Origin: a virus
IMG/VR virus record: IMGVR_UViG_3300042520_001372
Reading direction: 5' to 3' (one strand)
Length of the DNA: 64,000 bases
Shown one piece after another: positions 22,124 through 45,037 of the stretch (the stretch's first letter is position 1; each line of letters begins with the position of its first letter). A program made the translations under genes and the position numbers. The notes under the pieces are model-generated. The model did no database searches. It saw only the letters and a list, made by a program, of their open reading frames with translations, and was not told where the DNA came from.

Positions 22124-22204
22124 TTATTGCTTATTTATTTTTCTTAGTTCAAAAACTATTTGCCATAAAGGTAAAGCTATTAGTAGTGCTGCTAACATTA
22201 TCAT
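22124..22204 (-). CDS. Tiny membrane peptide (26 aa; not in ORF track)
   Basis: MIMLAALLIALPLWQIVFELRKINKQ, started by ATGA at the junction repeat. Confidence 0.5.
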   Translation of the reverse strand: MIMLAALLIALPLWQIVFELRKINKQ

Positions 22205-22242
22205 TGCTCACCTCCTCCGTAGGTTTCGTTGTAGTATTGTTC
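22201..22242 (-). repeat. Gene-junction repeat (…ACCTACGGAGGAGGTGAGCAATGA), copy 1
   Basis: Near-identical copies at 22732-22773, 39082-39111, 40085-40128. Confidence 0.85.
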
Positions 22243-22419
22243 TGCCCATGTATCGCCAGGTCCAGGTCCTGCGTACAATAAAGTATTAGCGGCATCAATG
22301 ATTTGTTGTTTCTCCATTTCTTTGGCTTGTTCTTTCCATTCAGAAGGTATTGAATAACCTGCAAAAAGGAATCTGTCATACAACCACTCCACTGCCGTTT
22401 GTTGTTTATTGTTTGTCAT
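22201..22419 (-). CDS. 'MTNNKQQTAVEWL...YYxxTYGGGEQ' cassette-family protein
   Basis: Paralogous ends shared with 22732-22953 and 40085-40411. Confidence 0.75.
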   Translation of the reverse strand: MTNNKQQTAVEWLYDRFLFAGYSIPSEWKEQAKEMEKQQIIDAANTLLYAGPGPGDTWAEQYYNETYGGGEQ

Positions 22420-22735
22420 TGCTCGCTAATTTTGATTGCAAAAATTCAATTAGTTGTTTCAATTCGTCTTGGTTTAAGAATAATGTTTCTATACCTAAAA
22501 ATGCACATTCAATTCCAACATCCCCGTCTGGATAACCTTTTATACTCCATTGGGAAAGTTCTTGTTGAATGTCAATCCTATCCCATTGTGGGTTTTCTTG
22601 GTACTTGATGTATTTAAATCTTTGTTTATTGTTTTCCATTCTTTTATCGTTTAAAAATTTGTTTAGTGTTTCAGTTGTTTCATTGCTTAATGCTTCATCA
22701 AGTTTGTTTTCAAGTTTGTTTAAGTCAAGGCTCAT
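22406..22735 (-). CDS. Hypothetical protein, apparent fusion containing internal MENNKQ cassette start
   Basis: ...NDKR-MENNKQ... internal copy of the family leader. Confidence 0.6.
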   Translation of the reverse strand: MSLDLNKLENKLDEALSNETTETLNKFLNDKRMENNKQRFKYIKYQENPQWDRIDIQQELSQWSIKGYPDGDVGIECAFLGIETLFLNQDELKQLIEFLQSKLASNDKQ

Positions 22736-22953
22736 TGCTCACCTCCTCCGTAGGTTTGTTGGTAGTATTGTTCGCCCGAAACACATTGTAAATTGTTCAC
22801 TCCTTTCATTTTGATTCCGTGAGCCCATATAATTTCACTCTTATGCATTGCCATATGCTCCTCTAATATAGCATACCAAATGAATTTATCCTTTGGTGTA
22901 TCCCATAACTTGTGGAATAACTGTTCTATTGATGTTTGTTTATTGTTGCTCAT
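22732..22953 (-). CDS. Cassette-family protein (MSNNKQ...GEQYYQQTYGGGEQ)
   Basis: Shared N- and C-terminal motifs. Confidence 0.75.
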   Translation of the reverse strand: MSNNKQTSIEQLFHKLWDTPKDKFIWYAILEEHMAMHKSEIIWAHGIKMKGVNNLQCVSGEQYYQQTYGGGEQ

Positions 22954-32159: not shown

Positions 32160-32522
32160 TTAATCCTCTGTTGTACTTGATAAAGATACTCCGTCTTCTT
32201 CATCTGTTTTTTGAATTAACATTTTATCTCTATCTTCTGAATTGAACCAATAATCGATTACTTTGTTTAAGTTACCGACAAAGGCACCTAATAAGATCAA
32301 CAACATTTCTTTCCAGTCGTCAGCTATCTGTACTCCAACGAATACTGCTGAGTTAATTCCTACAATGATTAAAGTAAATAACCCTAAGATTACTAATGTA
32401 ATTTTCCATCTATTGTTCTGCATTTCCTGCAGCATGTTGTAGAATCGATTAGTATCGGATACTTTAGCAGCAGGTTCTGTTGTTGAACCCACTGCTTTTT
32501 TTATTGTTTCTTTAATACTCAT
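32160..32522 (-). CDS. Two-TM membrane protein
   Basis: ITLVILGLFTLIIVGI and MLLILLGAFVG; IDYWF. Confidence 0.7.
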   Translation of the reverse strand: MSIKETIKKAVGSTTEPAAKVSDTNRFYNMLQEMQNNRWKITLVILGLFTLIIVGINSAVFVGVQIADDWKEMLLILLGAFVGNLNKVIDYWFNSEDRDKMLIQKTDEEDGVSLSSTTED

Positions 32523-34411
32523 TTGTTTATAATTATTTTTGAAGTTGAAATTTTAGTATCTGTTTTAACTGATAAGAAATACAAACCATCTTCTAACTTA
32601 GTTAAGTTAACAACGTATTTGTAGTCTCCTGCAGGCATTTTGGTGTTTAACACCTCCATTACCTTTCTGCCAATCAGATCGCTAACCATTACTTCGGTTT
32701 GTGATTCTTGTTCTACTCTGAATTGAACATTAATTATTCCATCGTTTGGATTTGGAAATACTAATAAGTCTTTAAGTTCGTCAAGCTTGATTGCTTTCTT
32801 AACTCTCCTTACTTCAATCACTCCCATTGCTGGTGTAATGTTCATATCCCTTGCATCATTACCTCCCACGTATTTAGGTCCAGTCCAGATAGCTGCGGAA
32901 CCCCATTCATCTTGAGGCTTCTTAGCGATGAACTGAATGTTAAATACATTCTCACCGTCATTTACTAATTGATTTCCTTTTAAGTCAGCTGCACCAAATG
33001 CAACTACTCCGTCAGATGGGTTAGTGTATGAAGTCCAGTTCATCATCTTCTCAGTTAAATCGATTTTCTTAAACTCTAATAATGCTGTATCATACTTTAA
33101 TTCTAATTGAATTGCTCCTAATTGTTTTCCGTCGGTAAGCATTCTTACAGGAACGTTAACTAAGTTACCTTCGTCAACTTTAATTTTAGGCATGTTAACT
33201 TCAATAGTTTCAGTTACATTGTCGTACTGAACTGTGTTATCGATAATGTAGTTTTTAGCATTTGCTGAGTTGATAATCTTAATAGGAGTCAAACGAGCCA
33301 TTTTAAATCCTGTGGAGTTTGCATCTCCTTTAACAGCTACATAGTAAGTGATAGAATCTCTTCCATCTACCGAGTATGTGAAGTTATTAACTGTTGAGTA
33401 AGTAGAAGTCAAGTTAGAGCTTGCTCCGTTGATTGCATTATATTCGGCAACTGTAAAGAACATTACATCCTTCTTAGAGTTAGGCCAAGCAGAGAATCTA
33501 CCTGCTAATCTTCCATATACTGAATAAACGTCTGCAATGCTAATTAAACCATCAGTTCCGTTAACGTCCATTGTGTAGTAATCAAATCCTGCAGGAGTGT
33601 ATTGACCTAAGATAGATTGATTGATCTTCTGTGCATCTGCAGTAGAGAATACGTTACCGGGAGTCATTGTATCTCCTTTAACGACAATTCTAACATCCCA
33701 GTAAGTAGTATCTAAGAATTTTCTAAATACTGTAACTCCATTAGAGTTAGTCTTCTGTACTGCAATTTCAGTCCAGGTAGAAGAACTTTTAGCTCTTTTC
33801 TCTAAACTAACTGTTAAGTTTTTAGCATCTGTACCTGTAACGTTCTTAAACTTAGTAGCAAATCTTAATACCTTCTGATTGAAACGACCACCGTAAGAGT
33901 AAACTACCAAGGTAGTATCATTACCCCAGTTAGTAGCAGCTCTGTTAGAGAATGACTTAACACCTGATACTTTTAAAGTCTTAATAGAATCTAAAGTGTT
34001 CCATGTAGACTCACCAGCATGGGTAAAAGTTAAATCAAAGGTTGCTCCATTAGAGTAGTTAAAAGTTGAGTTAGTACCTGTGTAAGCTAAAGTAACTGTT
34101 AAGAACCCTTGAGTATTACTATCAACATACTGTAAGTATTGATCGGTAGCAGAGATCTTTAAGGTAGGTACAACTGCAGTAAATGCAGTATTATCGTAGA
34201 ATACACGAAACTGCACACCTGTAATTTTCTCAGAAGTAGAAGTGTTGTAGAAATGCAAAGGGGCAACAGTCTGTCCGACAGTAGTGGTTGCTACTTGATA
34301 ACCAGAATCAATTACCACCCAGTGCCCTGTTCCAGGTGATGTTGAAGATGATTGTGCCGATACTCCGAAAACGGCCAATGCCGTCAGAAGGAATGCGATG
34401 AGTTTTTTCAT
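32519..34411 (-). CDS. T9SS-secreted scaffold: cohesin-like + CnaB/dockerin-like + cohesin-like + type A CTD
   Basis: Signal peptide; ITGVQFRVFYDNT; MDVNGTDGLISIADV; VNVPVRM...LGAIQLELKYDT; VFPNP...D.IGRKV...GLYFL...KII. Confidence 0.82.
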   Translation of the reverse strand: MKKLIAFLLTALAVFGVSAQSSSTSPGTGHWVVIDSGYQVATTTVGQTVAPLHFYNTSTSEKITGVQFRVFYDNTAFTAVVPTLKISATDQYLQYVDSNTQGFLTVTLAYTGTNSTFNYSNGATFDLTFTHAGESTWNTLDSIKTLKVSGVKSFSNRAATNWGNDTTLVVYSYGGRFNQKVLRFATKFKNVTGTDAKNLTVSLEKRAKSSSTWTEIAVQKTNSNGVTVFRKFLDTTYWDVRIVVKGDTMTPGNVFSTADAQKINQSILGQYTPAGFDYYTMDVNGTDGLISIADVYSVYGRLAGRFSAWPNSKKDVMFFTVAEYNAINGASSNLTSTYSTVNNFTYSVDGRDSITYYVAVKGDANSTGFKMARLTPIKIINSANAKNYIIDNTVQYDNVTETIEVNMPKIKVDEGNLVNVPVRMLTDGKQLGAIQLELKYDTALLEFKKIDLTEKMMNWTSYTNPSDGVVAFGAADLKGNQLVNDGENVFNIQFIAKKPQDEWGSAAIWTGPKYVGGNDARDMNITPAMGVIEVRRVKKAIKLDELKDLLVFPNPNDGIINVQFRVEQESQTEVMVSDLIGRKVMEVLNTKMPAGDYKYVVNLTKLEDGLYFLSVKTDTKISTSKIIINK

Positions 34412-36850: not shown

Positions 36851-38221
36851 TTAAGAAAAAGATGAAAGTTTCATGAATTTCTTAGCTAATTCCTTCTTAT
36901 CGAAGCTATCTACCTGGGAAAATGTTGTGGGTGTGTTAGAAGTGGTATCTTCGTAGGTCGGCATATCTTCGGTTAATTCGATATGACCGTTGTTAGTATC
37001 GATCTTTGCTCCGAAGGTCATTCCATCCATTCCGTATCGATTCTTCATAACGTGTACTCGGCCTGTTCCGTGAACCTTATCTTCTTTCTTTCTGGATAAA
37101 GATAAACAGAAGTCAGCAACCATGATCTTATCATATGATCCTGCTGCCTTATCTCCTTCGATAATATCGTCTTTTGCTCCCATTCGGTTAACCTGAGAAG
37201 GTGATAGAACAACTACTTTAAATTCCTTAGCCATTCCCTTACATGCAACGTACATATCATCAATTTCATCTTTCCTTTCAGTAAACTTCTTGGAAGGTGG
37301 TCGGAGATAATCGATGTAGTCAATTACTACCATATCAGGTTTAATGTCTGCGTCAATGCACTTTTGAATATGGGCTTTCAAGGTTGCTACAGAGGCTGCT
37401 TTAGGTGGATACTCTTTTACTACTAGCTTACCGGCCAGACCCTCAACTATGCTCTCAACCTCCGGGCGGTGATGCTGTACTTCTTCGATTGAATGCCCGG
37501 TAAAGTAACAGTCAAATCGTTTACCAACGTAATCCTGTCCTAATTCTAGAGTATAGTAAATGACATTGTAACCCATCTTAACTGCGTGAGCTGCCATTGC
37601 AACCATCATCCAAGATTTACCTCCCCCTGGGTTACCAAATACAATACCTAAATCACCAGCTCCAAAACCTCCTTGGGTTAATTGGTTCAACATAGGCCAA
37701 GGAGTAGGAACGGTGGGGCGATAATCCTCCCGGTAACGGGTCTCAATATCCTTATTATATTCGTGTCCAATGTTTCTATCCTGTCCGGCCTTTAACGCGT
37801 TATCAATCAAGTGCCGAATTGAATCGTAGTCACCTGAGTTTAGAAGGTCAACTGAATTTAATAGAGCTGTTTTTAATTGTTGGTTCTTACAGAAGGCAGT
37901 AAATTCTTCTTCTACATACTGAAGTTCATCATCTGAATGTCGGTAAGCTTCTTTGATCTGCTCAACAATCGAAGTCTTAAGTACATCGTTATCTAGTTTT
38001 TTCACTCCTATTTTTAGAGTATCCATTGAGATTACAGTATGGTATTTATTCCAATACTGTAAAATTTCATTGATAATCCATTTATGAGCAGGGTTTGGAA
38101 AGTGCTCATCGGATAAAATATCGTAGATATTCTGAACGAATTCTTTTCTTGTTAGTAATGCTCCGATTGTTTTTACTTGAAACGCCGGGCCGTAATCGCT
38201 TAGTACTTTTAATGATGCCAT
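36851..38221 (-). CDS. Replicative helicase (DnaB / T4 gp41-like)
   Basis: GNPGGGKS Walker A, YTLEL, VIDYID, SQVNR, MKNRYG. Confidence 0.93.
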   Translation of the reverse strand: MASLKVLSDYGPAFQVKTIGALLTRKEFVQNIYDILSDEHFPNPAHKWIINEILQYWNKYHTVISMDTLKIGVKKLDNDVLKTSIVEQIKEAYRHSDDELQYVEEEFTAFCKNQQLKTALLNSVDLLNSGDYDSIRHLIDNALKAGQDRNIGHEYNKDIETRYREDYRPTVPTPWPMLNQLTQGGFGAGDLGIVFGNPGGGKSWMMVAMAAHAVKMGYNVIYYTLELGQDYVGKRFDCYFTGHSIEEVQHHRPEVESIVEGLAGKLVVKEYPPKAASVATLKAHIQKCIDADIKPDMVVIDYIDYLRPPSKKFTERKDEIDDMYVACKGMAKEFKVVVLSPSQVNRMGAKDDIIEGDKAAGSYDKIMVADFCLSLSRKKEDKVHGTGRVHVMKNRYGMDGMTFGAKIDTNNGHIELTEDMPTYEDTTSNTPTTFSQVDSFDKKELAKKFMKLSSFS

Positions 38222-38266: not shown

Positions 38267-38995
38267 TTAATCTTTATAAATCCACCTATACCCTGCAGAT
38301 TTAAATACTTTTTCTCCTGCTTGATTCTTATGGCAACAATTACGAACTGCAGATGGTGAAAATCCAAACTCCCCAGTTTCTTTTAAACTCTTGAACTCCT
38401 TAATAATTTCTCCGGTACTGTCATTTAACTGTAAAACAGCCCTCCATTTTTTTGGATTTTCTACTCCTTTTTTTGCTTCTGATATAGCTTTTTTTTCATC
38501 AGCAGTCCTAGGTATTCCTTTATTCCAAGAAGCAATTCCTCTTTTTGCTTCTGAAATTCGCTGCTTAGTTTCCTCAGTATGTGAAATACCTGTTCGTGTC
38601 GCTTTACCCCTTCTCCGTTCTGAGATTTGCTTTTTGTGTTTTTCGGTCAAAGTTTTTCCTTTATGTGTTTTTGAATTAGCTTCTTTGAATCCTAATCGGG
38701 CTTCTTCATATACTCTGGAGCTAGGTGTGTACCTACTTTGTTTGGGGTTATGCTGAGTGCACATCTTCCAGAAAGCGTAAGCCCGTGATTGACTATTCGG
38801 TTTATCTCTATATAACAACCAATGCGCTATAAAATGTTCTCTAGCTGTTAATAATACCAAATTTTCTTTTGTATTAGAACCGCCTTCACTCTTAGGTACT
38901 ATATGGTGCTTTTCGTAGTAAGTTTCTTTTGTTTTTGTTCTGTTTTCTTGCTGTGCTTTTTGCACCAGTAAATTGTAATGTTTGTAATATTCCAT
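38267..38995 (-). mobile_element. Free-standing HNH homing endonuclease with NUMOD3- and NUMOD1-like domains
   Basis: EKHHIVPKSEGG.N..ENLVLLTAREHF.AH; HTEETKQRISE; F.SL.E...AGYRW; TATTTATA at 39000-39007. Confidence 0.9.
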
Positions 38996-39084
38996 TTATT
39001 ATAAATAGTCTTAACATCAACATTCTACTATATACTGCAAATAAAAAGTTTTTTAGAAAATTAAACTTATTTTAGTATTTGTCA

Positions 39085-39420
39085 TTACTCACCTCCTCCG
39101 TAGGTTTGTTCAATTAATTTTTTAAGACAAGCAAGTTCTGCTTCTTCGTAGGTTTCAAATCCAAATCCTTTCGTCCAATTTATTTGGTAGTAGTAAAACG
39201 AAAACTCTTTGTCGGTGTCTTTTTTAAATCCAATATAAGAATCTACATAGTGCTTCTCTCTAAACCATCTAAATGCCATAGCGTTACACACTGTTCTATG
39301 AATATCATCTGGGGGTAGTTCATCAAGATACTCAGGTTTCATGTCAGTGTCGGCTAGATTGTGTGTCTCAGCTAACCACTCAAAAAAGTTTAAGTCTTCT
39401 AATTCTGTGTATAGTTTCAT
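39085..39420 (-). CDS. Cassette-family hypothetical (AFRWFRE...YEEAELACLKKLIE-QTYGGGE)
   Basis: Shares blocks with 40616-41050 and the junction repeat. Confidence 0.7.
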   Translation of the reverse strand: MKLYTELEDLNFFEWLAETHNLADTDMKPEYLDELPPDDIHRTVCNAMAFRWFREKHYVDSYIGFKKDTDKEFSFYYYQINWTKGFGFETYEEAELACLKKLIEQTYGGGE

Positions 39421-39438
39421 TTGTTACCTCCGTATGTT
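39418..39438 (-). repeat. Non-coding junction repeat AACATACGGAGGTAACAAATG
   Basis: 21-nt exact copy at 39842-39862. Confidence 0.85.
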
Positions 39439-39654
39439 TTATTTACAAAACTTTTCTAATTTTTGAAGATTAATTATTCCTAATTCTTCACATGCAGACA
39501 TAGATAATTTTACTTCATCTACATTGAAACCTTTTTCAATAATAAAAGTTGCAATGTGTGAACGATTATCAATATGTATAGCAGTTACACGATGGGTAGC
39601 GTCTTTTAGGTCTTTATTGAACCATGTAAGTCCCCAAACTATTACTTTACTCAT
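39439..39654 (-). CDS. Hypothetical protein
   Basis: 71 aa, preceded by partial junction (GGTAACAAATGA). Confidence 0.6.
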   Translation of the reverse strand: MSKVIVWGLTWFNKDLKDATHRVTAIHIDNRSHIATFIIEKGFNVDEVKLSMSACEELGIINLQKLEKFCK

Positions 39655-39844
39655 TTGTTACCTTCTTTTTACAATCTTGGTTTCTTCCAAAAACTTCATC
39701 GATGGTATTATCACTATATCCATCAAGTTTTAATGCTAATTCAAGTGCTTCTCTAATAGCATAAGGATAATTACAAGACTTTGTGTCAATTGTTACAATT
39801 GCAGTTTGTCTTTCTTCGTTAGTTCTGTTAATAGTTATTATCAT
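39647..39844 (-). CDS. Hypothetical protein
   Basis: 65 aa, preceded by junction repeat. Confidence 0.6.
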   Translation of the reverse strand: MIITINRTNEERQTAIVTIDTKSCNYPYAIREALELALKLDGYSDNTIDEVFGRNQDCKKKVTNE

Positions 39845-39860
39845 TTGTTACCTCCGTATG

Positions 39861-40088
39861 TTAAATTACTAAATTTACTTGGGCTATTCCTGAATCGTTT
39901 GAAATGAATATTTTAATACCCATAAATGTTTCAACTTTTACAATACCTTCATAGTCTTTAATGACAGACCTTATCATGAAGTCTTTTGTTGATTCATTCA
40001 TTAAAATACCAATCGGCTTTTTATTATTTTGTGATTCGTATTTCTCTATTTTAAATACAATATCAGCCATTAATTCATCATATGTCAT
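39861..40088 (-). CDS. Hypothetical protein
   Basis: 75 aa, preceded by junction repeat. Confidence 0.6.
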   Translation of the reverse strand: MTYDELMADIVFKIEKYESQNNKKPIGILMNESTKDFMIRSVIKDYEGIVKVETFMGIKIFISNDSGIAQVNLVI

Positions 40089-40411
40089 TTGTTACCTCCT
40101 CCGTAGGTTTGTTCGTAGTATTGTTCACCAGTTAGTGGTAGCGTACTTTCAGGATAATCAATTCCATGAACTGTTCCTTTGTTGTATGCAGTTTCAATTC
40201 TTTGCTTCTCCATTTCTTTGGCTTGTTCAAGTAATTCAATATACTGAATCTCAAATTCTTTAAGTGATATTTCCTCATTGTTTAATTTTGTAAGTAAATC
40301 CACATAAGATTTTGCTAACCACTCTACTGCTAACTTATTGTTTGTCCTATTTTCTGTGTTTGTGTAAACCTGAATTATGTTTTTAAGTTTATTTATTTTA
40401 TTGTTTGTCAT
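40085..40411 (-). CDS. Cassette-family protein (MTNNK...AVEWL...EQAKEMEKQ...GEQYYEQTYGGGNK)
   Basis: Paralog of 22201-22419. Confidence 0.75.
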   Translation of the reverse strand: MTNNKINKLKNIIQVYTNTENRTNNKLAVEWLAKSYVDLLTKLNNEEISLKEFEIQYIELLEQAKEMEKQRIETAYNKGTVHGIDYPESTLPLTGEQYYEQTYGGGNK

Positions 40412-40629
40412 TTGTTACCTCCTTCGTAGGTTAATTCAATTACCTTAAACTCAAGTATTCCAATATTGTTATTGCTATTTACAAAATGTTCAATTTCACC
40501 CAATGTTGTATTCTCGTTACATAACATTGATGGATTTATAACCTTCCAATCATCTGGGCTAATTTGAATACTTGTCTTAAAAGTTGCTACAAATTGTTTC
40601 ACTGCCGTTTGTTGTTTATTGTTTTCCAT
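40408..40629 (-). CDS. Cassette-family protein (MENNKQQTAV...TYEGGNK)
   Basis: Family termini around an unrelated core. Confidence 0.7.
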   Translation of the reverse strand: MENNKQQTAVKQFVATFKTSIQISPDDWKVINPSMLCNENTTLGEIEHFVNSNNNIGILEFKVIELTYEGGNK

Positions 40630-41050
40630 TTACTATTTCAATTAATTTTTTAAGACAAGCAAGTTCTGCTTCTTCGTATGGTTGATATTTCATCTCCCAT
40701 TGTTTAGGGTCTGTATTATAATGACCAATAACAGAAATATCCCACCAGGTAGTTTTATTAATTAGTCCTCCAATATAATTGATTTGACATCTAAGATTGT
40801 GGTTCTCTCTAAACCATCTAAATGCTTGTGAGAATGTTGGTGCTCCGAACCATTTTAACCTATCATGTTTTTGAAAAGGTATATAATCTCCTGATGCATC
40901 TCTTATATTGTTAAAGTAAAATGATTCAGCATTTTTTCCATCATAAAAAGCTAAACAAGGTTCATCAAATCCAAGTTGCTTTAACTCTAAAGCAAGTTCG
41001 TAGGGTACAAATTCTTTGTTCATCTCCGTTTGTTGTTTATTGTTTGTCAT
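40616..41050 (-). CDS. Cassette-family protein (MTNNKQQT...FVPYELALELKQLGFDEPC...APTFSQAFRWFRE)
   Basis: Family leader; first gene after promoter at 41055-41085. Confidence 0.75.
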   Translation of the reverse strand: MTNNKQQTEMNKEFVPYELALELKQLGFDEPCLAFYDGKNAESFYFNNIRDASGDYIPFQKHDRLKWFGAPTFSQAFRWFRENHNLRCQINYIGGLINKTTWWDISVIGHYNTDPKQWEMKYQPYEEAELACLKKLIEIVNGKQ

Positions 41051-41054
41051 AACC

Positions 41055-41085
41055 TTAATATATGAAATTATTTGAATTTAGACAA
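41055..41085 (-). promoter_or_regulatory. Promoter TTG-N20-TATATTAA
   Basis: Minus: TTG tctaaattcaaataatttca TATATTAA. Confidence 0.65.
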
Positions 41086-42108
41086 CTTAAAAAAGGTATC
41101 TGTTGCCCAATAATCAACATTCTTAATAAAATGTGCCAGGCCGTCCATCTCATAAAGCTCAACGAAATGGTTCTTGTGAAAGTCGTTATTCTCTTCGTTG
41201 ATGAGTCCGTTAATGTAATCAATCTGTCTATCATCTAAGATTGGATTCTTAAGATCCATTAACTTATAATGGTTAAGTAGGTTCTGACGTGCAAATAATA
41301 CCCGGGCATAGATCTGGTGCTCTGTTAAATGATCTTCAGCATAGTCGAAGATATCCTGCATTGACATCGGAACATCTAAGATATCCGGGAATAATTTTAA
41401 AAGCGTCTTTGGTCCTAATCCTTTAATGCCTTCAATCTTATCTGATTGGTCTCCAAGCATTGTTTTGTAGATAATAAAATTATCTGGATGAACCATAAAT
41501 TCTCTCTTAACGTCTTTTGGTCCGTAAAATACTTTTGTAACCGGTCTATAGAGAGTTACGTGGTCGTTAACTAGCTGAAGGTAATCCTTATCAGATGAAA
41601 CAATAATCATCTGTGAATTAAACCTCCGGGGTAACTCTTTAGCCATGTAAGCAATCATATCGTCTGCCTCTGCCTTATCGATCATCCCAACTTTAATTGG
41701 TAAACACTGAAGGTAATGAATGATCCTGGTTATCTGCCCAACCTTTGCATCATTTTCATCATCTAAGGATTCAAAAGCATCCCAGTTTGTAATTCGGTTA
41801 ATCCCTCTGTTTGACTTATATTCAGGCAGTAAATTCTTTCTGTTGGTAGAAGATCCTACTCCGTCGAAGATTACGTAAACGCCTGTCGGCTGTACCAGTT
41901 GAATTAATGAACCTAATGATCTAATGAATCCGGCCAGACCTCCAATGTGGGCTCCGTCGTTGTTAGTCATATTGATAGTTGCAAAGTTTCTAAAGAATAG
42001 ATTCAATGCATCAATAACTAATACGCGGGAGTGAAAATTTTCGTCTGTGGGTATTACTTCTTCTACCTCCTTGATGTTAGCAAGTAAGGCTTTGTATTCT
42101 GCTTTCAT
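41068..42108 (-). CDS. 5'-3' exonuclease / flap endonuclease (T4 RNase H-like)
   Basis: LVIDALN, FDG, R..L.PEYK.NR, EADD, SSDKDYLQL, GDQSDKIEGIKGLGPKT. Confidence 0.93.
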   Translation of the reverse strand: MKAEYKALLANIKEVEEVIPTDENFHSRVLVIDALNLFFRNFATINMTNNDGAHIGGLAGFIRSLGSLIQLVQPTGVYVIFDGVGSSTNRKNLLPEYKSNRGINRITNWDAFESLDDENDAKVGQITRIIHYLQCLPIKVGMIDKAEADDMIAYMAKELPRRFNSQMIIVSSDKDYLQLVNDHVTLYRPVTKVFYGPKDVKREFMVHPDNFIIYKTMLGDQSDKIEGIKGLGPKTLLKLFPDILDVPMSMQDIFDYAEDHLTEHQIYARVLFARQNLLNHYKLMDLKNPILDDRQIDYINGLINEENNDFHKNHFVELYEMDGLAHFIKNVDYWATDTFFKLSKFK

Positions 42109-42175: not shown

Positions 42176-42889
42176 TTATCTACCGCTACTGGCTCCAATA
42201 CCTGTATCACTGTAGGTATCCCTAGCTGCTTTTTCATCTGCTAGTTGCATAGCTTCTTCGCTAGAATATTGTTTGCCGTTGTAGCTTAGCATTGGATGTA
42301 GGCCGTAATGTGCTGCATCTTCTAATGCTGCAAGAACAGCCATCCAATCATATTTTGTTAAATCTAACTCTGCAGATAATATATCGTTTGCTGAATCGTC
42401 CATTACAACTGTGTACCCTAGTTTTTCATAGTTTAAGTGATCTTGGGACTCTTCACCTTCGGGGAAATCAAATAATACTTTGCTTTCAGCAGCTTCGTTC
42501 ATCATTTTAGAACTAGAAGTTTTTTGGTAAATAATATACTCATATTGATCGCTGAATAGCACTGCTAATTTTGCACCAGGATATCCTTCTCCTGCTTCAA
42601 AGTCGTACATAACAGCCTCCCCTTCGTCACTATCCTCTTCAAAAGAAGCTTTTTCTTTTTCTAACATCTGTAATAAAGCTTTAGGGTCCATTTCCTTACG
42701 CTCTTCCATAGACCCTCCAGGTCCGCCACCAGCTTCAACTACTTCAACCGGTTTGTTCATGTCAATACCTGCTTGTGCAAAAGCTTCTGCTAAGTCTTGA
42801 GTCTCTTTTTCAAAGTACTCGTTTATCATTCTAGAATTAGTAGTTACCTTATTCTCTACTAAATACTTTTTTAAGTCAAAATTATCCAT
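42176..42889 (-). CDS. MDNFDLKKYLVE-leader acidic protein (putative internal head protein)
   Basis: Shared leader; own TATTTATA and terminator. Confidence 0.7.
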   Translation of the reverse strand: MDNFDLKKYLVENKVTTNSRMINEYFEKETQDLAEAFAQAGIDMNKPVEVVEAGGGPGGSMEERKEMDPKALLQMLEKEKASFEEDSDEGEAVMYDFEAGEGYPGAKLAVLFSDQYEYIIYQKTSSSKMMNEAAESKVLFDFPEGEESQDHLNYEKLGYTVVMDDSANDILSAELDLTKYDWMAVLAALEDAAHYGLHPMLSYNGKQYSSEEAMQLADEKAARDTYSDTGIGASSGR

Positions 42890-42968
42890 GTTTTGTTTTA
42901 GTTATAAATATAATCTAAAGATAAGAAAAAAGCCCCTGCAAAGCAAGGGCTCTTAAGTGTTTATTTTT
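42840..42968 (-). repeat. Cassette junction unit: terminator + promoters + leader-coding DNA
   Basis: Near-identical to ~43473-43601 and related to ~43825-43940. Confidence 0.9.
42926..42952 (-). terminator. GAGCCCTTG-family terminator overlapping TTG-N20-TATCTTTA promoter
   Basis: Minus: GAGCCCTTGCtttGCAGGGGC-TTTTTT-ctTATCTTTAgattaTATTTATA. Confidence 0.85.
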
Positions 42969-42976
42969 ACTATACT

Positions 42977-43522
42977 CTAGTAAGCATAACCAGCAGGAAC
43001 GATGTCGTTCTCGGTTGATTCATTACCTTCTAAGTCATACCAGTAGGTATAAGCTTCTTCTCCATACTCTGCATTGTTCCAATCGTACTCTTGTCCAGAT
43101 ACACCGTAACCTTTAGGGTACTTGTATATAAAGATAACAATACCTCCCTCCATATCCTCTTCACCTACTTTAAAAGTAGTGCCGTTAGGAAATTCGACTT
43201 TACGAACTTTTTGTGGTTTTTTTTTAAGCTCTCCTTCTTTCTTTTCAGCTTCAGAAACAGTTTCATCAATTGATAGAGTTGATATTGTGTAAACTAAAAA
43301 ATCATTGATTTGTTTTTCAGAATAACCTTTCTCTAGTAAATCAAAAGCAACTGCATCAGCACCCTTCACAAACATGTGAAATTTCTCGCTAGAAGCTTCT
43401 TTCTCCATTTTTTCAATGGCATCATAATCAAAACCCGTATTGCTCGAGTATTCATTTGTTATCTGTGAGTTAGTAGTTACTTTATTTTCTACTAAGTACT
43501 TCTTTAAATCAAAATTATCCAT
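42977..43522 (-). CDS. MDNFDLKKYLVE-leader acidic protein
   Basis: Shared leader, unrelated body. Confidence 0.7.
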   Translation of the reverse strand: MDNFDLKKYLVENKVTTNSQITNEYSSNTGFDYDAIEKMEKEASSEKFHMFVKGADAVAFDLLEKGYSEKQINDFLVYTISTLSIDETVSEAEKKEGELKKKPQKVRKVEFPNGTTFKVGEEDMEGGIVIFIYKYPKGYGVSGQEYDWNNAEYGEEAYTYWYDLEGNESTENDIVPAGYAY

Positions 43523-43558
43523 GTTTTGTTTTAGTTATAAATATAATCTAAAGATAAG

Positions 43559-43585
43559 AAAAAAGCCCCTGCAAGGCAAGGGCTC
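43559..43585 (-). terminator. GAGCCCTTG-family terminator/promoter
   Basis: Minus: GAGCCCTTGCcttGCAGGGGC-TTTTTT. Confidence 0.85.
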
Positions 43586-43610
43586 TTCTGTGTTTATTTT
43601 TTAGTTTTAT

Positions 43611-43874
43611 TTACAGTAAGTCACCGCTTTTTTCTAATTCCCTAAAGTAGTCCTTAATGCCTGTATAATTAGTAGATACATTCTTCCATTCTTGAGCGTA
43701 CTCCGCTACTTTCTTAGCTAATTCTCTAGGTGATAGATCTTCGTACTGTGGATGGGACATTACAAAGTCTTCAATAGCACTGTGAGAATTTTCGTTTTCT
43801 GCTTCTTCTATCATTCTAGAGTTTGCAGTAACCTTATTCTCAACAAGGTACTTTTTTAAATCAAAATTATCCAT
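43611..43874 (-). CDS. MDNFDLKKYLVE-leader protein
   Basis: Shared leader, unrelated body. Confidence 0.7.
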   Translation of the reverse strand: MDNFDLKKYLVENKVTANSRMIEEAENENSHSAIEDFVMSHPQYEDLSPRELAKKVAEYAQEWKNVSTNYTGIKDYFRELEKSGDLL

Positions 43875-43957: not shown

Positions 43958-45037
43958 TTATTCCGGCTCTTCTTGGAAATAACCGGGTGTTGAATCCTCA
44001 TAAGCTTCTTCTACTACATCGAAGTCTCCTCCTCCTAGAATGGCTGACCATTCTTTGGCATGAGCATCTTTGTACTTCTTAAGCTCTTTCTCATCATCGT
44101 TGATAAATCCGTGAGGTGTCATAATGATCCTGCCTCGGGTTGTAATTCCATTGATATGATTCTTATCAATCTGAAGATTAGTTCTCTTAGCAAATTCTAC
44201 CTGTTTACCATCCTTGATTGCTTTAATCTTGGAAGTACCTGCATTCATAATGTTACCAAACGTTACTACAAAAGTTGCATCATACCACATGGCAAATCCA
44301 CCTTTGTTCATAAGCTTGGGTTGACCCATTGGTGATTCAGGCTTTTGAGTCCATACCTTGTTTACTACTACTAATGTATTAGTATACGGTGAAGACTCTT
44401 TCCTTGACATTACAATCCGTTGATTTACTCCATTACCGAACTGAGTTGACATTGCACCTGCATTCCATTCGTTATTATTCTTGTTAGAACGTACTGAAAG
44501 TTCGCAAGGTACTGAACCGATTGAATCCCAAAGGAATAAAAGATCGTGAGGTAAGCTTCCTTTCTTCTGTTCGTCAATTAAATCTAGAATAAATCCAGCA
44601 ACATCCTCGATTGTATTTAGAGTCTCTCTATCAACGTAGATAAAGAATCCACCGTAATCAACAACCTCACCGGTTCGTTCATCAACCGTTTGATTTACTT
44701 GCAGACCCATTTGAATAGCATGTTCCCAATTCCATTTCATCTCTGTAATAATGAATACTGGAAGGATGCCTGCTTTCTGGGCTGATACTGCAGCTTCAAG
44801 CAATGCTGTAGTCTTTCCTGTATCAGAATGACCTCTCAGCATTACAATGTGACCCATCGGGATTCCCGGGATTGAAGTCACCTCTTGGAAAGATGGTGAT
44901 AGAGGAATCCACTGCTGATCCTTAAATTTTACGTTACCTGTTAAGAGCTTCTTCTCTTTGAACTTATCTAAAGAGAATCCTTTCTTAAGCTCGGCAGACA
45001 CGGCCTCTGTTAAAGAAGCTTTTTCTTTCTTAGCCAT
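43958..45037 (-). CDS. RecA/UvsX-like recombinase
   Basis: GIPMG..V.LRGHSDTGKTT, LWDSIG, KGG..MWY. Confidence 0.9.
   Translation of the reverse strand: MAKKEKASLTEAVSAELKKGFSLDKFKEKKLLTGNVKFKDQQWIPLSPSFQEVTSIPGIPMGHIVMLRGHSDTGKTTALLEAAVSAQKAGILPVFIITEMKWNWEHAIQMGLQVNQTVDERTGEVVDYGGFFIYVDRETLNTIEDVAGFILDLIDEQKKGSLPHDLLFLWDSIGSVPCELSVRSNKNNNEWNAGAMSTQFGNGVNQRIVMSRKESSPYTNTLVVVNKVWTQKPESPMGQPKLMNKGGFAMWYDATFVVTFGNIMNAGTSKIKAIKDGKQVEFAKRTNLQIDKNHINGITTRGRIIMTPHGFINDDEKELKKYKDAHAKEWSAILGGGDFDVVEEAYEDSTPGYFQEEPE

Follow-up and report, generated by a model that had tools for sequence, protein, structure and literature searches.

In the 64,000-nucleotide (nt) stretch of the virus record IMGVR_UViG_3300042520_001372 analysed here (hereafter the window), a row of small genes lies between an RNase H/flap endonuclease gene and a DnaB-type helicase gene, the genes being joined to one another by short constant blocks of sequence. 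Identical blocks stand in viral contigs that otherwise have little in common with this phage, and every homology edge that we inspected against relatives falls inside one of them. We consider it probable, at roughly 70%, that mini-gene cassettes are shuffled through these linker blocks in a hyperplastic hotspot of a T4-like phage. The window corresponds to bases 2379-66378, read on the reverse strand, of a 166-kb record that has terminal repeats and a G+C content of 36.6%.

Constant blocks join the genes of the array

Every gene of the array is encoded on the minus strand. After the RNase H gene come seven small open reading frames (ORFs), designated A144, B73, C108, D75, E65, F71 and G111, then a 10-codon remnant, an HNH-NUMOD homing endonuclease gene and the helicase gene (Table 1). 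An initial annotation, made from the sequence alone, had described a repeated junction motif ahead of the starts in this array, and its presence was confirmed by regular-expression search (by which both junction and start copies were located), by shuffling and by a whole-genome count. Of the seven junction copies in the window, five belong to the array (39082-40431) and the other two to a second array (22201-22755). When as many as three mismatches are allowed, a 17-mer has five matches where 0.15 are expected, and none of 100 shuffles reaches five; the 14-mer core, with at most one mismatch, is present five times in the entire 166-kb genome, always within the first array.

The junctions take two forms. 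In one, the stop codon after a protein tail, TYGG(G)(NK/E/EQ), shares bases with the next ATG; in the other, it is the start block that overlaps the last codons of the upstream gene (..N-D/G-K-Q-stop) in another frame. Stop and start overlap at A144/B73, B73/C108, C108/D75 and E65/F71, as ATGA or over 8 or 14 nt; D75/E65 and F71/G111 are instead separated by gaps of 16 and 18 nt. Two exact 21-nt copies begin at or just past the stop codon of the upstream ORF, out of frame, and are therefore non-coding: the junction persists as a nucleotide element outside its coding context, as had been claimed, although one base lower than first placed. The sites given as start codons in the initial annotation are likewise real junctions, but on the minus strand the coordinates named are the low end of the ATGA overlap, and the copy at 39082 precedes the remnant ORF rather than a gene.

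The genes also share a start, another point on which the earlier description holds: a 25-nt block, exact at the head of A144 and at 22395-22419, near-exact in a further copy (Table 1) and partial at 40397-40411 and 39071-39085. A third block, inside C108, has a counterpart at 22306-22329 with 23 of 24 nt identical (the search pattern allowed A or G at one position). We propose that three blocks bound the cassettes: the 25-nt start (MTNNKQQT), the internal block (AKEMEK) and a 3′ block composed of the last codons (YY..TY), a Gly-Gly(-Gly) tail and the stop/start overlap.

The blocks are common to otherwise unrelated phages

At least 119 viral contigs contain the exact 18-mer of the junction, while a control with its letters reversed occurs in 3; the exact 25-mer of the start is present in at least 116. 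Among the matches listed, to which the counts in this paragraph refer, 91 instances of the 18-mer were usable: 38 encode the tail of a mini-protein family described below, 25 the ends of other proteins, and 28 lie in short frames or non-coding sequence. Nothing is common on either flank in 3891 of the 4095 pairs of instances (95%). Together with the two exact 18-mers of the window, the resulting 93 instances have 79 upstream and 72 downstream body clusters, and the neighbours are combinatorial, with two or more different upstream partners for 8 of the 14 recurrent downstream bodies. No protein of 150 residues or more is common with this phage in 52 of the 67 loci that extend over at least 8 kb, so the linker is common to phages that are otherwise unrelated. 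The 25-mer start fronts members of the mini-protein family, A144-type and MTPKEK-type bodies, lipoprotein signal peptides, and MKLYTEEQ bodies that keep their own Met.

Logan unitigs (k=31) from three lake metagenomes end at every block. Compared with adjoining unique stretches, the metagenome depth at the blocks is higher by a factor of several to about 30; for the internal block it reaches 160-719, against about 15-25 in the unique stretches of the array. Both the unitig ends and the depth fit blocks common to many co-occurring phages.

Homology to relatives ends inside the blocks

The initial annotation had made its proposal depend on where breakpoints between relatives fall; mapped against the motif, the homology edges fall within the junction or the shared start. 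Compared with one relative (L007; loci are numbered with the prefix L), identity extends across the RNase H gene and on to the last base of the 25-nt start, where it stops; it resumes at the GGAGGT of the B73/C108 junction and ends inside the C108/D75 junction, C108 itself being 94.8% identical across 327 nt. In L017 just the 3′ 134 nt of C108 match, at 97.8%, and to a different gene: here the left edge is at the internal AKEMEK block and the right edge within the C108/D75 junction.

The D75 protein is 93-97% identical in L103, L105, L067 and L098 and, as read from the alignment, the gene with its non-coding junction is 97-99% identical in these four and the window. Similarity ends directly after ATGA, four different genes coming next across the five contigs; upstream, the joint of L105 is at the beginning of the 3′ block. 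The A144, B73, D75, MKLYTEEQ and MKLYTQHQ cassettes are found again in L242, L103, L067 and L105, where their order and genomic setting differ. In the window, beside A144 and C108, B73 has an MENNK start and a TYEGGNK tail; the same body in L103 (93% identity) has an MTNNK start and a TYGGGEQ tail, so that the block alleles travel with the neighbour and not with the body.

On the minus strand of L063, around the 18-mer, a start block is followed at once by a junction, without any intervening body, apparently an empty cassette.

Contigs from the three lake metagenomes and one RNA library show no rearrangements within this phage. The many "joints" in these contigs were rejected as rearrangements, since their sides measure just 20-35 nt and they most likely belong to other phages sharing the blocks. 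The RNA-library contig was set aside as evidence for transcription of the array, as it comes from a 90-95% relative.

The RNase H-helicase gap is an insertion hotspot

With the RNase H protein, 47 related loci were retrieved, at 52-97% identity. Among the 37 relatives in which the distance from the RNase H gene to the helicase gene was measured, 22 have a gap of 2-64 bp; here it extends over 2846 bp. In the window and 11 close relatives it is 400-2850 bp with wholly different contents; the relatives have one to four constant-leader genes of the MDNFDLKKYLVENKVT type, GIY-YIG or HNH endonuclease genes, a lipoprotein-like gene, or arrays. Arrays of the present kind occupy the gap in the window and L007, and also in L016 and L017, where it runs off the contig end. 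A gap that is short in most relatives and variously filled in others marks an insertion hotspot; with gap contents and cassette orders both differing across the aligned relatives, gene order is variable, a fixed order being what the initial annotation had named as counting against its proposal.

Several occupants of the hotspot are of other kinds. GIY-YIG endonuclease genes lie in the gap of L007, L014, L023 and L028, the one in L007 at the place of the HNH-NUMOD gene of the window; in L021, an endonuclease copy 81% identical to the HNH-NUMOD gene is the sole content. L027 (868-1518) has a single 216-residue gene with a lipoprotein-type signal peptide, and no array. A second family with a constant start is represented by three genes in the window (42176-43874), where the same ~24 first residues (MDNFDLKKYLVENKVT..) precede unrelated bodies. 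It is found downstream of the RNase H gene in L006, L008, L011, L013, L015 and L020 as well, with one to four genes per locus, and it occupies the same hotspots as the mini-gene arrays; most of these genes have a ATATTTATAAC-type motif about 10-20 nt upstream of the ATG.

The helicase gene itself is split after residue 202 by inserts of ~1.5 kb (L022, L023, L028, L041, L043, L044) or ~0.6 kb (L036, L045), and the ribonucleotide reductase gene is split near residue 315 in L022, L041, L043 and L044, the inserts in the two genes measuring 0.6-1.5 kb. Because the helicase ORF of L023 ends in a stop codon, they could be introns or mobile elements of some other kind, and not inteins.

Features of the array and its surroundings

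Table 1. Coordinates of the array, its blocks, its flanking genes and the second array, numbered along the window.
Feature	Position	Strand	Remarks
RNase H/flap endonuclease gene, upstream anchor	41068..42108	-	Pfam 5_3_exonuc_N, 114.7 bits
Cassette A144	40616..41050	-	constant start, then second Met, then phrog_12005 body
Cassette B73	40408..40629	-	retains just start and tail of the mini-protein family
Cassette C108	40085..40411	-	three-helix mini-protein family member; mosaic gene
Cassette D75	39861..40088	-	unrelated to the mini-protein family
Cassette E65	39647..39844	-	homologues in L077 (92%) and L133 (83%)
Cassette F71	39439..39654	-	small ORF
Cassette G111	39085..39420	-	A144 paralogue with family-type tail TYGGGE
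10-codon remnant of a cassette start	39053..39085	-	partial start motif; cut off by endonuclease insertion
Free-standing HNH-NUMOD homing endonuclease gene	38267..38995	-	Pfam HNH and NUMOD3; phrog_655, E 3.9e-41
DnaB-type (gp41-like) replicative helicase gene, downstream anchor	36851..38221	-	Pfam DnaB_C, 65.2 bits
Second array, same genome	22149..23345	-	same start, tail and junction as the first array
Junction B73/C108	40408..40431	-	encodes tail TYEGGNK; ATGA overlap at end
Junction C108/D75	40085..40108	-	encodes tail TYGGGNK; ATGA overlap at end
Junction D75/E65	39841..39861	-	exact 21-mer, non-coding
Degenerate junction E65/F71	39647..39665	-	GAAGGT replaces GGAGGT; 8-nt overlap
Junction F71/G111	39417..39437	-	exact 21-mer, non-coding
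Terminal junction, extended Shine-Dalgarno allele	39082..39105	-	predicted pairing with 16S tail -17.3 kcal/mol
Second-array junctions, long form	22732-22755 and 22201-22224		extended Shine-Dalgarno
Constant 25-nt start (MTNNKQQT), copy 1	41026..41050	-	exact; heads A144
Constant start, copy 2	40605..40629	-	2 mismatches; overlaps last five codons and stop of A144 in another frame
Internal constant block (QAKEMEKQ) in C108	40202..40225	-	candidate crossover point within the gene

A144 has a 100% identical copy in L242 and a 69% identical one in L195; F71 has no homologue among the 280 loci compared. The HNH-NUMOD gene has an upstream motif of its own. A nucleotide search of the locus against cultured phages returned a single match, 108 nt of this gene to T4 mobE, and over this length it is 78% identical to mobE of T4-like coliphages.

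The first and last cassettes, A144 and G111, contain two exact direct repeats about 1.5 kb apart, one of 39 nt (40637-40675 and 39109-39147) and one of 23 nt (40803-40825 and 39254-39276); recombination between them could delete the whole interior of the array. In the second array, a 109-residue ORF (22406-22735) has an internal MENNKQ start block, and in L007 the same body is a 77-residue gene starting at that point; the ORF looks like two cassettes fused at the linker.

The phage and its host

Indirect evidence points to a T4-like phage from a lake, with a host in the Bacteroidota. The closest cultured phage is Flavobacterium phage immuto, the helicase being 63% identical. The protein encoded at 32519-34411 has a type IX secretion system type A sorting domain (TIGR04183, 41.7 bits against a cut-off of 23), which implies secretion through the type IX system of the host. 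The only two matches to a 22-mer in genome contigs are short contigs of Bacteroidia metagenome-assembled genomes, one of them from Lake Mendota. Finally, leaders are A-rich and lack a Shine-Dalgarno (SD) sequence, with a 4-mer SD core or better in 27 of 215 genes. It is from these four lines together that a Bacteroidota host is suggested. The array stretch is contained in lake-water metagenomes, where 17 runs have at least 70% of the sampled words. No tRNA genes were found in the window. The RecA-like gene noticed earlier near the array is at 43958-45037 and passes the Pfam cut-off.

The junction carries a strong Shine-Dalgarno element

At the junctions, GGAGGT precedes the ATG by about 5-6 nt; positions -3 and -6 are A, and ATGA follows. 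The junctions of the two arrays are the only strong, well-spaced SDs of the genome: the pairing predicted with the 16S tail is -10.9 to -17.5 kcal/mol there and about 0 for ordinary leaders. Loci that bear the motif elsewhere are SD-poor too, 7-11% of their large genes having an SD core. SDs of Bacteroidota rpsU typically belong to the class below -13 kcal/mol (PMC9976891), in which the stronger junction allele falls, and A at -3 and -6 favours initiation in Flavobacterium (PMC9976891).

From their sequence, translationally coupled starts at the junctions are plausible. They are problematic in that ribosomes of the host phylum are reported to be blind to the SD unless bS21 is missing (PMC7797042, PMC13000453). 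No bS21 gene was found in the phage, and a phage-encoded bS21 linking the SD to ribosome remodelling was accordingly discarded as a candidate. The junction might nonetheless combine a crossover point with a portable, regulated start, a private translation channel for fast-evolving accessory genes, an extension that we regard as doubtful. If it held, mini-genes behind an rpsU-class SD would be read mainly by the minority of ribosomes that lack bS21, or by terminating ribosomes that re-start, and the linker would owe its spread among unrelated phages to the translation channel that it brings along. A strong SD repeated in phages whose hosts hide the anti-SD bears in any event on specialised ribosomes in Flavobacterium.

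Could the junction instead be kept solely as a signal for starting or re-starting translation, the exchange proceeding by other means and the joints coinciding with it at gene boundaries? The features just described, an SD 6 nt before the ATG, the A residues and the ATGA or longer overlap, are what such a signal would contain; the junctions are unstructured, and in 151 loci not picked through the 18-mer the SD-led starts also belong to three or four stereotyped alleles. We nevertheless find this unlikely. Positions that are irrelevant to an SD, namely the preceding TAC and the exact spacer, are the same in over 100 unrelated contexts, and the internal block is a crossover point yet carries no start signal. 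Moreover, the signal would address ribosomes reported as SD-blind, in phages where 89-93% of large genes do without an SD core.

The blocks stem from the tails of a mini-protein family

C108 and two genes of the second array (22201-22419 and 22732-22953) belong to a family of mini-proteins of ~65-110 residues with three motifs in order, QQTAVEW near the start, AKEMEK in the middle and YYNETY near the end; the family comprises 1963 matches at E values up to 0.001. A144, D75, E65, F71 and G111 are not members. No Pfam or PHROG family corresponds to it; searches of Pfam, PHROGs, the PDB (with Foldseek) and a protein atlas gave nothing on its function, no solved structure with its fold was matched, and a protein search against cultured phages had no match. 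An AlphaFold model (mean predicted local distance difference test score, pLDDT, 80.6) has three helices across residues 9-67, an unstructured coil for the MTNNKQQT start and a mean pLDDT of 41 for the last five residues, the GGGEQ tail.

Distant members of the family carry many other tails, and so the GG(G)NK/EQ tail and the MTNNK prefix are local additions to its termini. The junction and the shared start derive from these disordered tails of a three-helix family of ~70 residues. Beyond the family, the start is found on A144, before its second Met, and the tail on the A144 paralogue G111, and the junction stands non-coding after the unrelated D75 and F71. The "microhomology linkers" invoked by the initial annotation are thus indeed present at the breakpoints, but they are not bare microhomologies: they are blocks of 18-45 nt inherited from the mini-protein family, from its N- and C-terminal tails and from one internal block.

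Such an origin invites a simpler account by ordinary paralogy, in which one small gene was duplicated in tandem and protein selection kept its termini conserved, without any shuffling. The three family members of the window share all three motifs, and A144 and G111 are indeed paralogues. Yet the unrelated D75, E65 and F71 sit between junction copies, the start and tail are predicted to lie outside the folded core, the tails of distant members differ, and the same bodies have different neighbours in other phages. The account is already contradicted by the copies that are non-coding or out of frame (two here and 28 of the 91 elsewhere, among the matches listed) and by the identical junction between unrelated genes; we judge it very unlikely.

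No dedicated recombination system is apparent

The initial annotation had called the array integron-like while noting that no dedicated recombinase was visible. The second statement stands. No match to the tyrosine recombinase family (PF00589) was found in the 166-kb genome, controls matching in 14 of 14 genomes, and endonuclease homologues are present in just 3 of 119 and 5 of 104 motif-bearing loci. The first does not, as both structural hallmarks of an integron fail: there is no integrase, and six junctions folded as DNA in search of attC-like hairpins reached only -1.9 to -3.6 kcal/mol, no better than shuffles (z-scores -0.95 to +0.46). The array is also not enriched in promoters, with 16 promoter-like sites where 18.3 are expected, and no terminator-like site lies within it on the coding strand, the sole one being upstream of the RNase H gene.

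It is therefore highly improbable that the junction is recognised, and cassettes moved, by a site-specific system dedicated to this, whether integron-like or driven by an endonuclease. Homing endonuclease genes do occur repeatedly in the same gap, HNH here and GIY-YIG in four relatives, and their breaks could stimulate local repair; their rarity among motif-bearing loci led us to reject an endonuclease-dependent mechanism as the general one. Joints are, besides, found at the start and internal blocks, whose sequences differ from that of the junction.

That the shuffling is only apparent, an artefact of assemblers jumping between phages at common repeats, seems scarcely credible: the blocks are branch points of the assembly graph, as the unitig ends and the excess depth attest, but at 18-45 nt they are shorter than reads and the larger assembler k-mers, and both the succession of D75 and MKLYTQHQ (L103 and L098) and the order A144-B73-C108 (window and L242) recur in different samples.

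Proposed mechanism

We return to the shuffling of cassettes through linker blocks, for which general homologous recombination is the most likely mechanism. As the start and tail are disordered protein ends, they would tolerate attachment to anything; as many co-occurring phages have the blocks in identical form over 18-45 nt, these could serve as crossover points. Crossovers at the blocks, mediated by the RecA-like protein of the phage or by that of the host, would take place within one genome and between co-infecting phages. Bodies would then be swapped, unrelated ORFs captured, genes fused or halved, and cassettes deleted, the 3′ block supplying whichever gene lies downstream with a ready start region (GGAGGT, A at -3 and -6, ATGA).

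Several considerations weigh against this proposal. Mosaic joints survive selection at gene boundaries under any mechanism, and joints found there are only partly diagnostic; the joint at the internal block and those inside non-coding copies are stronger cases for crossover. All comparison sequences are short-read metagenome assemblies, in which exact repeats of co-occurring phages could produce some chimeric contigs, Logan unitigs breaking at each of them. Recombination through the blocks, its rate and the role of the junction in translation are accordingly deduced from assembled contigs, not directly observed. Lastly, the nucleotide identity of the blocks could come from frequent conversion or from selection on RNA.

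The ways in which phages acquire and trade small accessory genes have long been debated. With unusually sharp breakpoints and a population-wide sample of more than 100 contigs, from many otherwise unrelated freshwater Bacteroidota phages, linker-mediated exchange becomes directly testable in a new group of hosts, and the junction offers a simple sequence handle for locating variable gene arrays.

Comparison with known systems

Like integron arrays, the present one consists of small promoterless genes in one orientation, each ending in a repeated element, and has a content that varies among relatives. Lacking an integrase and a folded attC-type site, it is not an integron, and its joints lie at three different blocks.

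In lambdoid and other mosaic phages, boundary or linker sequences are found at the joints of modules, as formulated in the modular theory and attributed to relaxed homologous recombination by phage recombinases. Here too, short conserved boundary sequences mark the joints of unrelated modules. They are, however, far more stereotyped and abundant, with exact 18- and 25-mers in more than 100 contigs; they partly encode protein tails, and they join single mini-genes instead of functional modules.

As a start signal, the junction resembles that of rpsU (bS21) in Flavobacteriales, a strong or extended SD in a genome otherwise devoid of them (PMC9976891, PMC13000453). Unlike it, the phage element is repeated before many unrelated mini-genes, and that it is read by ribosomes lacking bS21 is only our conjecture.

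The closest parallel is provided by promoter-early stem-loop (PeSL) cassettes, found in hyperplastic regions of T4-type phages (Arbiol et al. 2010, PMC2839356; Comeau et al. 2014, PMC4122927) and among the few worked examples of such exchange. In both cases, a short motif is repeated between small non-essential genes in a variable region of a T4-like genome flanked by core genes, edges of indels or replacements between close relatives lie at the motif, and recombination between its copies is proposed. With PeSLs, recombination between neighbouring copies also gives off mini-circles. A PeSL is an intergenic promoter with a terminator hairpin; the linker described here is a coding tail with a ribosome-binding site and a stop/start overlap. 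Its second block makes up the first eight codons of the next gene and its third lies inside a gene; the host is in the Bacteroidota, and the blocks are common to phages otherwise unrelated. Having no promoter, terminator or hairpin, the junction is not a PeSL in the strict sense. The best-supported account, on our analysis, is that the array behaves like PeSL shuffling in outcome, which it would reach through another kind of linker, one made of protein-tail codons that carries the start signal with it.

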